18,938 nucleotides of DNA from an uncultured archaeon (lineage in GTDB: Archaea > Aenigmatarchaeota > Aenigmatarchaeia > CG10238-14 > SCSR01): contig CAYVFQ010000006.1 of assembly GCA_964451045.1 (NCBI GenBank), positions 1 through 18,938 on the forward strand, written 5' to 3'. Position numbers and translations under genes: made by a program. The stretch's first letter is position 1, and each line of letters begins with the position of its first letter. The notes under the pieces are model-generated. The model was not told the origin of the DNA. It searched no databases and saw nothing but the letters and a program-made list of their open reading frames with translations. Positions 1,323 through 13,097 of the stretch are shown in pieces.

Positions 1323-1601
1323 ATGATGAGTAAAATACCGGCAGACGCAAAGGTTGAAAATAAGGTCCTTGACAACGAGTTACTTCGGGTGGGGATAATA
1401 GCGGAACTTGACGCGATCAACCTTTACGAGCAGCTTGCGGCAGCAACAGACAACGAGGACATAAAGAAAGTTTTCCTGGACATCGCTAAAGAGGAAAAGA
1501 CCCATGTGGGAGAATTCAAGGCGCTGTTGCTGAAAATGGACAAGGAGCAAGTCGAAGAGATGGAAAAAGGAAAGAAAGAAGTTGAAGAGCTTCTTGAATG
1601 A
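1323..1601 (+). CDS. Ferritin-like / rubrerythrin-family half-domain protein (single diiron-ligand helix pair)
   Basis: 92 aa. ELDAINLYEQ...AKEEKTHVGEF supplies the E...ExxH ligand pattern of ferritin-like diiron proteins. GGAGG ribosome-binding site lies 9 nt upstream. Confidence 0.7.
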   Translation: MMSKIPADAKVENKVLDNELLRVGIIAELDAINLYEQLAAATDNEDIKKVFLDIAKEEKTHVGEFKALLLKMDKEQVEEMEKGKKEVEELLE

Positions 1602-1623
1602 TTTAAAAAAAGAGGTGAAAGGT

Positions 1624-1671
1624 ATGGAATGCAAATGCAAGAATTGTAACTGTTCTCCATGCGAATGCTGA
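1624..1671 (+). CDS. 15-codon cysteine-rich micro-ORF (MECKCKNCNCSPCEC). Putative metallothionein-like metal-binding micropeptide.
   Basis: ATG is preceded by GAGGTGAAAGGT (strong Shine-Dalgarno) at about 5 nt. 6 of 15 residues are Cys, in CxC/CxxC spacing. It is wedged with 15-22 nt gaps between the ferritin-like gene and rubrerythrin. It is not in the ORF track because it is under 60 aa. Confidence 0.45.
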   Translation: MECKCKNCNCSPCEC

Positions 1672-1686
1672 TATCAGGGTGAGAAT

Positions 1687-2268
1687 ATGGAGAAGACAAT
1701 AGAGAACCTTACTAAAGCGTTTATTGGAGAAAGCCAGGCACGCAACAGATACACGTTCTATGCGAGCGTCGCAAAAAAGGAAGGGTTTGAACAGATTGCG
1801 GAAATTTTTCTCATGACAGCAGCGAACGAGAAAGAGCACGCAAAAAGGCTTTTCGAGCACATAAGCGAACTGAAAAAGCAGCAGGGCGGAAAGATGGAAA
1901 TAAACGTCGAAGCGTCAGCGCCCGTTGTATACAGCACGACAGCAGAGAACCTGAAGGCTGCGGTTGAAGGGGAAAATTACGAGAGCGAGAAAATGTATCC
2001 CGAGTTCGCGGAAGTTGCAAAGCAGGAAGGGCTTCCCAGGATAGCCGCGAGGCTGAAGTCAATAGCTGTTGCAGAAAAGCACCACGAACAAAGATACAGG
2101 AACCTTCTGAAGGAAGTCGAGTCTGGGACTGTTTTCAAAAAGGAAGAGGAAGTGGAGTGGGTATGCCGCGAATGTGGATACGTTCATAAGGGGAAACAGG
2201 CACCGACAAAGTGTCCATCGTGCGACCACAGCCAATCGTTTTACCAGGTCAAATGCGAAAAGTACTGA
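1687..2268 (+). CDS. rbr: Rubrerythrin (diiron ferritin-like domain plus C-terminal rubredoxin-like CxxC...CxxC domain)
   Basis: 193 aa. Has the two E..ExxH motifs (EKEHAKRL, EKHHEQRY) and C-terminal CRECG...CPSCD. GGGTGAG ribosome-binding site upstream. Confidence 0.9.
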   Translation: MEKTIENLTKAFIGESQARNRYTFYASVAKKEGFEQIAEIFLMTAANEKEHAKRLFEHISELKKQQGGKMEINVEASAPVVYSTTAENLKAAVEGENYESEKMYPEFAEVAKQEGLPRIAARLKSIAVAEKHHEQRYRNLLKEVESGTVFKKEEEVEWVCRECGYVHKGKQAPTKCPSCDHSQSFYQVKCEKY

Positions 2269-2324: not shown

Positions 2325-2876
2325 ATGTATATACCGATAATTTTAGGCACGGCCAGAGAAGGCAGGCAGTCTGAAAAGGTTGCAAAGTTCATTCTGGAGC
2401 AGACAAAGAAAGCAGGAGTGGAAAGTGATATAATAGATACGCGATCATTCAGAATAGAAGCTACAGACAACACGCAGAGTCAGCCGGAGGCAAAGGAGTA
2501 CGCAGAAAAGGTCGAAAAAGCGGACGGCCTGATAGTGGTGTCGCCAGAATACAATCACAGTTTTCCGGGCGAGCTCAAGATGATGCTTGACATGGCGTAC
2601 CGGCAGTACTTCAACAAACCTATAGGATTCTGCGGCGTGTCGGCCGGACCACTGGGAGGGGCAAGGGCAGTAGAGAATCTGAGGCTGGTTTCAGTTGAGC
2701 TGCATATGGTGCCGATAAGGGAAGCGCTTTATTTCCCTGTTGTGCAAGATCTTTTCGACGAGAACGGGAAGATAAATGATGACGCTTATTTAAGACGGTT
2801 CAAGAGGTTCCTGGACGAGCTTCTGTGGTACGCAGAAGCGTTGAAGCCTGCCAGGAAAAATAAAAAAGGTGATTAG
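2325..2876 (+). CDS. NADPH-dependent FMN reductase (flavodoxin-like fold NAD(P)H oxidoreductase)
   Basis: 183 aa. ILGTAREGRQSEKVAKF N-terminus and LIVVSPEYNHSFPGELK core are typical of the NADPH-dependent FMN reductase family. Confidence 0.85.
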   Translation: MYIPIILGTAREGRQSEKVAKFILEQTKKAGVESDIIDTRSFRIEATDNTQSQPEAKEYAEKVEKADGLIVVSPEYNHSFPGELKMMLDMAYRQYFNKPIGFCGVSAGPLGGARAVENLRLVSVELHMVPIREALYFPVVQDLFDENGKINDDAYLRRFKRFLDELLWYAEALKPARKNKKGD

Positions 2877-3012: not shown

Positions 3013-3612
3013 ATGGAAAGATTTGAATTGCCAAAACTGGAATTTGACTACAATGCGCTGGAGCCGTACATATCCGAGCAGCAGCTGAGGATACACCACG
3101 AGAAGCACCACCAGGGATACGTGAACAACACGAACTCGATACTGGAAAAACTGGACCATGCAAGAAAGGGTGATGCGGACGTAGATATGAAAGCGATGCT
3201 GAAGGCGCTATCGTTCAATGCAGCCGGCCATTTGTTGCATTCGCTTTTCTGGAAGAACCTAGCGCCTGCAAAGGAGTGCAAGGGAAAGCCCGAGGGCGAA
3301 CTTGCGAAGATGATAGAAGGGAATTTCGGGAGCTTTGAGAGGTTCAAGAAAGAGTTCTCCCAGGCAGCCGTTTCAGTCGAGGGTTCTGGGTGGGCCGCTC
3401 TCGCTGTGTTCAAGGGCACTAACGAGCCGGTGATAATGCAGATAGAGAAGCATAATGCCAATATTGTCCCGTCGCTAAAGATACTGATGGTCATCGATGT
3501 GTGGGAGCACTCATATTATCTTGACTACAAGAACCAGCGTGCAAAGTTCGTGGAAGCTTTCTGGAACATCGTCAACTGGGATGAAGTCAACAGAAGGCTC
3601 GGGGCGAAATGA
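3013..3612 (+). CDS. sod: Fe/Mn superoxide dismutase
   Basis: 199 aa. Has [20 protein letters not shown] and the other canonical Fe/Mn-SOD metal-ligand motifs. Confidence 0.95.
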
Positions 3613-4097
3613 TGGATTTTGCAAAAAAACTTGAAGCATGCTCTGATTTCGCGTGCATATTCAAACTTGTGAAGTCTGCTGTAGAGTTCTCAATAGACAA
3701 AAGAAGAGTCGGGCTTATTCTTGGGCTGTCAAGCCTGCCGAACAACGTAGGCGCTATGCACCAGCTGGGCTCGAATTTCATAATCATGAACAAGAATCTG
3801 CTGGAGCGCGTGGCCGAATCGAACAGCAAGTGTCTGGTGAACGCATACGTTTTCCACATACTGCTTCACGAGTACATCCATTCTCTGGGATATGCGAACG
3901 AGCAGGATACCCAGATACTCACGCATGCGGTTTCCGAGAAAACATTGGGCTCGGACCATCCTGCAACGAAGATTGCCAGATACGGAATAGGTTCTGTGCT
4001 TTCAAGGGCTCCGGCTATGGTTTACCATGACCCGAAGGACAAAGGAATCGAGCTTGTCAAGGACTTTGAGGACGACAACCTGAACTACTTTGGGTAA
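3609..4097 (+). CDS. HExxH-motif protein, putative small zinc metallopeptidase. Translationally coupled to sod.
   Basis: 162 aa. [13 protein letters not shown] carries the HExxH zincin signature. The start overlaps the sod stop (ATGA). Confidence 0.55.
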
Positions 4098-12951: not shown

Positions 12952-12964
12952 AATGCTCCCGACG
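12952..12964. repeat. Proximal copy of the 13-bp direct repeat, forming the 3' end of tRNA-Glu
   Basis: Exact match to 10086-10098. Confidence 0.55.
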
Positions 12965-13097
12965 GGATTTGAACCCGTGCCATCGGGTATCTTCGTTCTG
13001 TCATGGCCGTGCGGCGTTTCTTACCGTGCGGCTCAACGCTTTCTTAGCATAAGCACTCGAAAGCCCGAGATCCTTGACCGGACTAGACGACGGGAGC
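12954..13097 (-). tRNA. tRNA-Glu(TTC) interrupted by an intron of about 69 nt at the canonical 37/38 position
   Basis: Minus-strand exons: GCTCCCG-TC-GTCT-AGTCCGGTCAA-GGAT-C-TCGGG-CTTTCGA | intron | CCCGA-TGGC-ACGGG-TTCAAAT-CCCGT-CGGGAGC-A. Anticodon TTC. Closely resembles archaeal tRNA-Glu. The 144-nt gene minus a 75-nt mature tRNA leaves about 69 nt of intron (roughly 12988-13056). Confidence 0.8.

Follow-up and report, generated by a model that had tools for sequence, protein, structure and literature searches.

A conserved six-cysteine micro-ORF beside an EncFtn-like gene of an uncultured archaeon, a candidate metallothionein-like peptide

The micro-ORF and its gene neighborhood

The stretch of DNA analyzed here (the window) spans the 18,938 nucleotides (nt) of contig CAYVFQ010000006.1 (assembly GCA_964451045.1) from an uncultured archaeon of the Aenigmatarchaeota. 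It carries a micro open reading frame (micro-ORF) for the 15-amino acid (aa) peptide MECKCKNCNCSPCEC in the 85-nt spacer (1602–1686) between a ferritin-like gene and a rubrerythrin gene. Comparison of this spacer with its orthologs in other archaeal sequences indicates that the micro-ORF is very probably a protein-coding gene under purifying selection. The frame (ATG GAA TGC AAA TGC AAG AAT TGT AAC TGT TCT CCA TGC GAA TGC TGA) closes right behind the last of six cysteines, which make up 6 of the 15 residues (40%) and are spaced C-x-C-x-x-C-x-C-x-x-C-x-C. The Shine-Dalgarno (SD) sequence that precedes the start codon (GAGGTGA) matches the complement of the archaeal anti-SD sequence (GGAGGTGATC) over 7 nt, the longest match in the 15 window genes surveyed. 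An initial annotation made from the sequence alone had described a cysteine-rich, 15-residue ORF with a framed ATG and TGA and with GAGGTGA about 5 nt before the start, and its coordinates, cysteine pattern and cysteine content all proved correct.

The gene upstream of the micro-ORF codes for a stand-alone half-ferritin of the EncFtn-like family, and genes for a flavin mononucleotide (FMN) reductase, a superoxide dismutase (SOD) and a lineage-specific 162-aa protein follow downstream of rubrerythrin (Table 1). The Ogg and ThiI genes come after the 162-aa gene. First-order Markov simulations predicted 0.05 ATG-initiated ORFs of 10–40 aa with at least 6 cysteines per window, compared to the one observed. 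Taken alone, this is a modest argument against chance; the decisive evidence is conservation.

Table 1. Coordinates of the micro-ORF and of neighboring features in the window
Feature	Position	Strand	Description
Micro-ORF	1624–1671	+	Encodes MECKCKNCNCSPCEC, 15 aa, 6 Cys; stop right behind the last Cys
Shine-Dalgarno sequence	1612–1618	+	GAGGTGA, 5 nt 5' of the micro-ORF ATG
EncFtn-like half-ferritin gene	1323–1601	+	Stand-alone, 92 aa; Pfam Rubrerythrin and EncFtn-like; Glu and ExxH di-iron half-site
Rubrerythrin	1687–2268	+	Pfam Rubrerythrin and RUBY_RBDX; begins 15 nt 3' of the micro-ORF; variable neighbor
NADPH-dependent FMN reductase	2325–2876	+	Pfam FMN_red
Fe/Mn SOD	3013–3612	+	Pfam Sod_Fe_N and Sod_Fe_C
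Lineage-specific 162-aa protein	3609–4097	+	Synteny anchor; HEYIH (HExxH) motif read from translations

Conservation of the micro-ORF across divergent loci

Synteny searches identified four mutually divergent orthologous loci (the window, L002/L003, L203 and L207) that keep an SD-led micro-ORF. The nearest relative of the window ferritin-like protein (P0002, 86% identity) is encoded on L002, a 125-kb JGI contig, and on L003, a Logan contig. On both contigs, synteny with the window covers AA_kinase, an 87-aa gene, the ferritin-like gene, a 162/168-aa gene, Ogg and ThiI, and the micro-ORF is intact (MECKCKICKCSPCRC) with the SD region AGAGGTGGG. We recovered L203 and L207 by using the family of the 162-aa protein (161 homologs) as an anchor. 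The gene order in these two loci is the 3' end of the ferritin-like gene, a strong SD, the cysteine micro-ORF and SOD. The L203 micro-ORF encodes MECKCKVCNCSSCRC (SD, AGGAGGTGG). In L207, the peptide (MVKSKSRSKRTSKSKRTSSCVCVVCGCSPCKC; SD, AGGAGGTGA) has the same core as elsewhere plus a basic N-terminal extension of 17 residues. The orthologs are 15–32 aa long, carry six cysteines each and end in C-x-C-x-x-C-x-C-S-[PS]-C-x-C-stop in all four loci. A strong SD is also kept in every locus, reading GAGGTGG, GGAGGTGG and GGAGGTGA at the corresponding site of the orthologs. Pairwise identity among the four loci is only 65–71% in the syntenic 162-aa protein, reflecting a deep and roughly star-like divergence.

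Searches based on sequence patterns revealed no further members of the family among the matches listed. The pattern M-x-C-x-C-x-x-C-x-C-x-x-C-x-C in genome contigs yielded mostly TGC-repeat noise and no MECKCK-type match among the matches listed (at least 119), and none of the 70 loci returned by a stricter pattern in metagenome contigs belonged to the micro-ORF family. An exact-protein look-up of the window rubrerythrin had no match. Its closest homologs (76–77% identity) stand in unrelated contexts without a micro-ORF.

The differences among the four loci are distributed as in a translated sequence. Variable sites over the 13-codon core number 6, 5 and 11 at the first, second and third codon positions of the sense frame, and this excess shifts with the frame. 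TGC and TGT are exchanged at five of the six cysteine codons and no cysteine is replaced in any locus. The stop codons (TGA, TGA, TAA and TAA) all follow directly on the last cysteine. We simulated neutral evolution by scattering the observed number of differences at random over the sites, with transitions favored 2:1. The probability that the six cysteines, the terminal stop and the open frame would be retained together was 0.003 for L002, 0.0005 for L203 and <5e-6 for L207. Furthermore, the sense frame is the only frame open in all four loci, and the antisense frames carry stops in L207.

These results bear on the possibility that there is no gene in the spacer and that a random ORF, or a non-coding or antisense element that is conserved, simply stays open. 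At equal composition, 0.05 such ORFs are expected per window and only four orthologs are known, as this possibility would have it. Yet the three independent comparisons with neutral retention, the third-position bias in the sense frame only, the conserved SD, the antisense stops in L207 and the lack of an Rfam match or RNA structure largely refute it, and we consider it essentially excluded.

Two other candidates were rejected. The Rfam search of the spacer had no match and no terminator was found in it. Folding of the single sequence was not significant (z = -1.2), and the RNAalifold consensus over the four loci (-1.17 kcal/mol) had 0 compensatory pairs. A riboswitch, small RNA or terminator in the spacer was rejected on these grounds. 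A readthrough or frameshift tail of the EncFtn-like protein was ruled out because the offset of the micro-ORF frame relative to the upstream gene varies between loci (1, 0, 0 and 1).

The initial annotation had proposed to follow the ORF in the orthologous spacers of relatives. These spacers keep the ATG, SD, frame, six cysteines and stop while synonymous sites vary, which supports a real micropeptide gene that escaped standard annotation, as the initial annotation supposed.

Linkage to the EncFtn-like gene

The EncFtn-like gene lies directly 5' of the micro-ORF in all four loci, with its stop codon 22–43 nt away and no intervening terminator, and is the only neighbor that they all share. By contrast, the gene 3' of the micro-ORF differs: it is rubrerythrin in the window, SOD in L203 and L207, and a decayed FMN reductase in L002. 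Rubrerythrin was not found 3' of the micro-ORF in L002, L203 or L207. Furthermore, L002 and L003 lack both rubrerythrin and SOD, and the FMN reductase of L002 is reduced to an N-terminal remnant of 28 aa (MFIPVILATVREGRHSEKVAVVILGERD; L002 4385–4471). This locus amounts to a natural deletion experiment, in which the micro-ORF is intact and the downstream genes are gone or decayed. Loci of related organisms that contain the 162-aa gene, rubrerythrin or both, but not the ferritin-like gene, are also without a micro-ORF (L197–L202, L205, L206 and L208–L211). For example, L198 has rubrerythrin and is missing both the EncFtn-like gene and the micro-ORF, and the 162-aa homologs in an OPT/Fumble/RTC context (L197, L199–L202, L205 and L206) are without both as well. 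Thus, the placement of the micro-ORF within a rubrerythrin/SOD oxidative stress cluster, as initially described, is accurate for the window but does not extend to the conserved partner, which is the EncFtn-like gene instead. The rubrerythrin/SOD set cannot be that partner, as the ORF persists in L002/L003 despite the absence or decay of rubrerythrin, FMN reductase and SOD.

The window EncFtn-like protein is related to the EncFtn domain of P. furiosus (PDB 5n5e and 2e0z; E = 1e-23, ~60% identity over residues 18–90). It keeps the Glu and ExxH residues of the ferroxidase site and scores 28.4 against the Pfam EncFtn-like profile (cutoff, 27). The protein (92 aa) has no cysteine and no Fe(Cys)4 domain. 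The abstracts of published EncFtn systems describe a ferroxidase paired with an iron-storing shell, and mention no cysteine micropeptide tied to EncFtn. The upstream protein, a two-helix half-ferritin, is closely homologous to the encapsulated ferritins of Pyrococcus furiosus (2E0Z/5N5E) and has the same Glu/ExxH residues, but differs from them in that no encapsulin gene is fused or adjacent to its own gene. No encapsulin domain turned up among the scanned ORFs of the window or in the gene lists of the orthologous loci. Because EncFtn-like genes elsewhere are without the ORF, its association with the EncFtn-like gene is specific to this archaeal lineage.

In another lineage (L004–L007), the EncFtn-like gene overlaps a desulfoferrodoxin gene. 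The overlap in L004 (3001–3653; EncFtn-like gene 79% identical) is 4 nt, and a NifU_N gene precedes the pair. From this arrangement, stand-alone EncFtn-like proteins seem to belong generally to oxidative stress modules of anaerobes rather than to encapsulin iron stores.

The pairing of a cysteine-rich peptide with a di-iron protein could also represent a rubrerythrin split into two parts. The micropeptide, alone or as a dimer, would then provide in trans a miniature Fe(Cys)4 redox center akin to rubredoxin or desulforedoxin. Its two CxxC pairs (C5-x-x-C8 and C10-x-x-C13) would hold the iron and supply the di-iron center of the EncFtn-like protein with electrons, giving a mini-rubrerythrin with peroxidase activity. 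Rubrerythrin itself combines a ferritin-like di-iron domain with a C-terminal Fe(Cys)4 domain, and the EncFtn-like protein lacks both cysteine and such a domain. Within the lineage, the micro-ORF is strictly linked to the EncFtn-like gene, at the 3' position that the desulfoferrodoxin gene (with the Fe(Cys)4 domain Desulfoferrod_N) occupies in L004. The two CxxC pairs and the genetic tie to a ferritin-like di-iron protein are, indeed, shared with rubredoxin-like domains. However, the knuckles of these domains are at least 12 residues apart (12 in the window rubrerythrin, CRECGYVHKGKQAPTKCPSC) and use four cysteines, whereas the CxxC pairs of the micropeptide are 1 residue apart and all six cysteines are conserved rather than four only. 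No rubredoxin or desulforedoxin Pfam match was obtained either. A split redox center is an attractive idea but, in our estimation, an unlikely one.

Cysteine sensing and peptide modification as alternatives

A short ORF with six cysteine codons could serve regulation rather than produce a functional peptide. Ribosomes would stall on the cysteine codons of such a leader, or attenuator, when Cys-tRNA is scarce or oxidized and thereby change the translation or transcription of the antioxidant gene downstream; the peptide as such would be without function. The cysteine codons are the most conserved feature of the micro-ORF, which ends 15–21 nt before the start of the next gene in three of the four loci. 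In the window, a segment within the ORF (TTCTCCAT) is also complementary to the start region of rubrerythrin (ATGGAGAA). Precedent for such leaders comes from the polycysteine leaderless small ORFs (sORFs) of mycobacteria (10.1101/834739; PMC4633059), which operate as cysteine-responsive attenuators (Canestrari et al., 10.1101/834739). The mycobacterial sORFs resemble the micro-ORF in being unannotated, very short, rich in cysteine, 5' of operon genes and conserved between species. They are defined by four features: they come first among the ORFs of a leaderless mRNA, contain at least two consecutive cysteine codons, target cysteine metabolism and form an RNA duplex that sequesters the ribosome-binding site (10.1101/834739).

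None of these four features holds for the archaeal micro-ORF. It is not first in the transcript, as it follows the EncFtn-like gene, and has no consecutive cysteine codons, nor is there a CC dipeptide in any ortholog. The gene downstream varies, is never a cysteine metabolism gene and survives in L002 only as a decayed remnant, next to an intact ORF. The folding results for the spacer reveal neither a conserved RNA structure nor a terminator, and the complementarity to the rubrerythrin start is missing from the other three loci. Furthermore, the exact alternating spacing of the cysteines is conserved together with the S-P dipeptide and the C-terminal position. The cysteine-sensing leader, which the initial annotation had offered as an alternative, thus fails on the first-ORF, consecutive-cysteine, cysteine metabolism and RNA-duplex features of the mycobacterial precedent. 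We disfavor it and rate it as improbable.

A 16-aa ORF behind a GGAGG SD in an Actinomycetes metagenome-assembled genome (MAG; L010 2345, + strand; MACDCDCCDCDDCDCC) is a possible actinobacterial counterpart of the polycysteine attenuator sORFs of mycobacteria.

The peptide could, alternatively, be the precursor of a ribosomally synthesized and post-translationally modified peptide (RiPP) or of a cofactor or chelator derived from cysteine, in which the cysteines are tailored by an enzyme, possibly an iron-dependent one. It has a short, cysteine-rich and conserved core, the L207 ortholog carries a variable N-terminal extension reminiscent of a leader, and a radical-SAM gene lies ~2 kb 5' of the micro-ORF in L002. 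Yet the latter has the Zn_ribbon_HMPTM domain, which we read as a methanopterin pathway type, and the other loci have no such gene nearby. The four loci share no conserved maturase, protease or transporter, the 'leader' is only 2 residues long in three of the four peptides and the EncFtn-like family extends widely beyond carriers of the peptide. This makes a RiPP-type precursor very improbable.

A candidate metallothionein-like peptide

The reading that we lean towards, with some reserve, is that MECKCKNCNCSPCEC is a metallothionein-like metal-thiolate peptide that acts as a metal buffer or chaperone beside the EncFtn-like protein. Metallothioneins are recognized by their low mass, high cysteine content (~30% as a criterion), few or no aromatic residues or histidines, and characteristic CxC, CxxC and CC motifs. 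The peptide fits this description, with its CxC and CxxC motifs. Phe, Trp, Tyr and His are present in none of the four orthologs and the CxCxxCxCxxCxC pattern is invariant. Metallothioneins, including the very short copper metallothioneins of fungi, share with it the low mass, the cysteine content (~40%), the CxC and CxxC motifs and a context of oxidative or metal stress. They differ in that the micropeptide is archaeal, is in an operon with an EncFtn-like gene and has no detectable sequence homology to them.

The closest likeness is to the beta-domain of mammalian metallothionein MT-2. The CKCK-x-C-x-C-x-x-C arrangement of MECKCKNCNCSPCEC matches SCKCKECKCTSCK in its spacing and in the positions of the lysines, as checked against human and rat MT-2 (PDB 2MHU and 4MT2), in which the segment reads CKCKECKCTSC. 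However, the beta-domain has 9 cysteines in an M3S9 cluster, whereas the micropeptide has 6 in 15 residues, so a different cluster stoichiometry or oligomerization would be needed. Both M(II)2Cys6 and Cu(I)4Cys6 stoichiometries occur in other proteins.

The micro-gene would be translated from its own strong SD and is probably co-transcribed with the upstream EncFtn-like ferroxidase gene. The functional unit of the predicted peptide would be the C-terminal core C-x-C-x-x-C-x-C-S-P-C-x-C-COOH, whose six thiolates could bind metal in a small cluster such as M(II)2Cys6 or Cu(I)4Cys6. Alternatively, the cluster may form in metal-bridged oligomers. In this form, the peptide would buffer or chaperone Fe(II), Zn(II) or Cu(I) and offer a sacrificial thiol, possibly in concert with the EncFtn-like di-iron protein under oxidative stress. 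The operon context suggests these roles: a di-iron oxidase, rubrerythrin and SOD are encoded nearby, and L207 has HMA-domain proteins and a P-type ATPase 1.7–2.7 kb 3' of the micro-ORF.

Prokaryotic metallothioneins offer a further comparison. The bacterial SmtA/BmtA proteins (Pfam Metallothio_Pro) and the mycobacterial MymT are, like the predicted peptide, small, cytosolic and rich in cysteine, and SmtA contains a CxCxxCxC stretch (KCACEPCLC). However, SmtA/BmtA proteins have ~55 aa, a zinc finger-like fold and His ligands, and MymT has ~53 aa. No profile match was obtained for the longer peptides of the micro-ORF family.

Several observations weigh against a metallothionein-like role. None of the Pfam metallothionein profiles was matched above threshold in a search that covered the longer peptides; the best hit, to Metallothio_11, came from the 32-aa ortholog only and remained at E = 0.079 and 13.6 bits against a cutoff of 27. 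The PDB search found no relative of the micropeptide and the PHROGs search of the peptides had no match. At 15 residues, the peptide is shorter than any characterized metallothionein known to us (~25 aa in Neurospora). The conservation of the cysteine codons is equally expected of a cysteine-sensing leader. The known orthologs number at least four, as the pattern scans listed a limited set of matches or covered collections in which the lineage is not represented. Lastly, EncFtn-like genes of other lineages (L004–L007 and seven relatives on viral contigs, L332–L338) have no micro-ORF, so the EncFtn-like protein does not generally need the micropeptide. The suggestion of the initial annotation that the peptide is metallothionein-like thus holds for composition, CxC/CxxC spacing and the spacing of the MT-2 beta-domain, but not for any significant match to a metallothionein profile. 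The micropeptide is outside every established metallothionein sequence family, and its likeness to metallothioneins is one of resemblance only. A literature search with the phrase 'archaeal metallothionein' returned no match.

The same hexa-cysteine module also occurs at the N-terminus (MKCGCTNCKCEDCLC / MKCGCTNCKCEDCLCG) of an ArsR-family regulator (HTH_5) in a Woesearchaeota MAG (JAPPOH010000014.1; L022 311–646, - strand). ArsR proteins are a family of metal sensors. The fusion suggests a metal-sensing role for the module in this second archaeon, and provides independent, circumstantial support for metal binding by the hexa-cysteine module.

Similar micro-ORFs in viral and metagenomic sequences

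A scan of IMG/VR for the cysteine core followed by a stop returned at least 120 matches (L212–L331), which included ~30 distinct ATG-started ORFs of 14–34 aa once repeats were removed. Examples among the matches listed are MCKCKDCKCKPCKC, MCDCKDCNCKECNC, MEQACKCDLCNCTPCKC, MCNNPNCKCNPCNCKDCKC and MLNACKNPDCKCENCNCKNCDC. Loci with such ORFs include L331 492, L219 1890, L213 1454, L221 and L214 4436. Many of the listed micro-ORFs have an AGGAG SD and recur across samples. Within the viral groups, N-terminal residues that were outside the search pattern are conserved amid highly variable flanks. A third-codon-position bias is seen in three of the four groups examined. The micro-ORFs occupy fixed positions in several unrelated phage groups, with no common partner gene. 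One of the groups is related to pelagi- and methylophilales myophages, in which nothing is annotated at the corresponding spot. The viral peptides had no match in PHROGs or Pfam. A tblastn search of a viral peptide against annotated phages had none either, probably due to low-complexity masking, and a DNA search with L214 was also negative.

Peptides this short do not allow homology between the viral and the archaeal forms to be established. The hexa-cysteine motif class nevertheless appears to be widespread and unannotated, as viral contigs hold many unannotated peptides with the identical C-terminal motif. We therefore entertain, as a tentative proposal, that the archaeal peptide is the first archaeal member of a widespread and unannotated class of genetically encoded hexa-cysteine micropeptides of 14–32 aa ending in CxCxxCxCxxCxC-COOH, which would include those of many marine phages and, as a fused module, that of the ArsR regulator. 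Such peptides might be the smallest ribosomal metallothioneins known, and the archaeal one could have been recruited as the dedicated partner of a shell-less EncFtn ferroxidase.

Other cysteine-rich ORFs surfaced in these searches. Human gut metagenome contigs (~50, L127–L193) carry a recurring ORF, MECRCKVCLC(K/R)VCLCRVCQWQGMHQHRMLMYLQQHFSHFQQMSIL, with CLC(K/R)V repeats that vary in number. This ORF, which starts with MECRCKVCLCKVC, accounts for most of the 70 metagenome pattern matches and usually has ~34 open in-frame codons on its 5' side. Short cysteine-rich ORFs are also conserved between independent marine sources (L113 3678 and L182 1841; L195 544, - strand, and L212 6870). They read MECTCKECKCENCTCATTGCSC[EK]NCTC[EV] (28 aa, with no SD and an AT-rich 5' side) and M[DN]CNCKNCNCEVCNCTCC[ND]C (20 aa).

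Other features of the window and related loci

The 162-aa protein used as the synteny anchor belongs to a family with 161 members, in which the HEYIH motif (HExxH, zincin-like) is conserved and the gene usually comes after SOD or desulfoferrodoxin; the protein had no Pfam or PDB match. Rfam identified a tRNA of 144 nt at 12954–13097 of the window (- strand), a length that implies an intron; ARAGORN reports none there. The contig starts with a truncated tRNA (1–42, - strand). A TBP gene is present on the contig of a relative and, with the intron-containing tRNA, points to an archaeal source.

Implications

The micro-gene at this locus is genuine and new, and a role of its product as a metal-thiolate partner of the EncFtn-like ferroxidase is plausible. 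The selected, 15-residue peptide with six cysteines is a concrete candidate for an archaeal metallothionein and one that can be synthesized. It also gives stand-alone EncFtn-like proteins a partner that can be tested. Furthermore, genes of only ~45 nt proved recognizable from sequence and synteny alone. As dozens of comparable phage micro-genes, all without annotation, came to light among the matches listed by the motif search, metal-thiolate micropeptides may be a systematically overlooked class.

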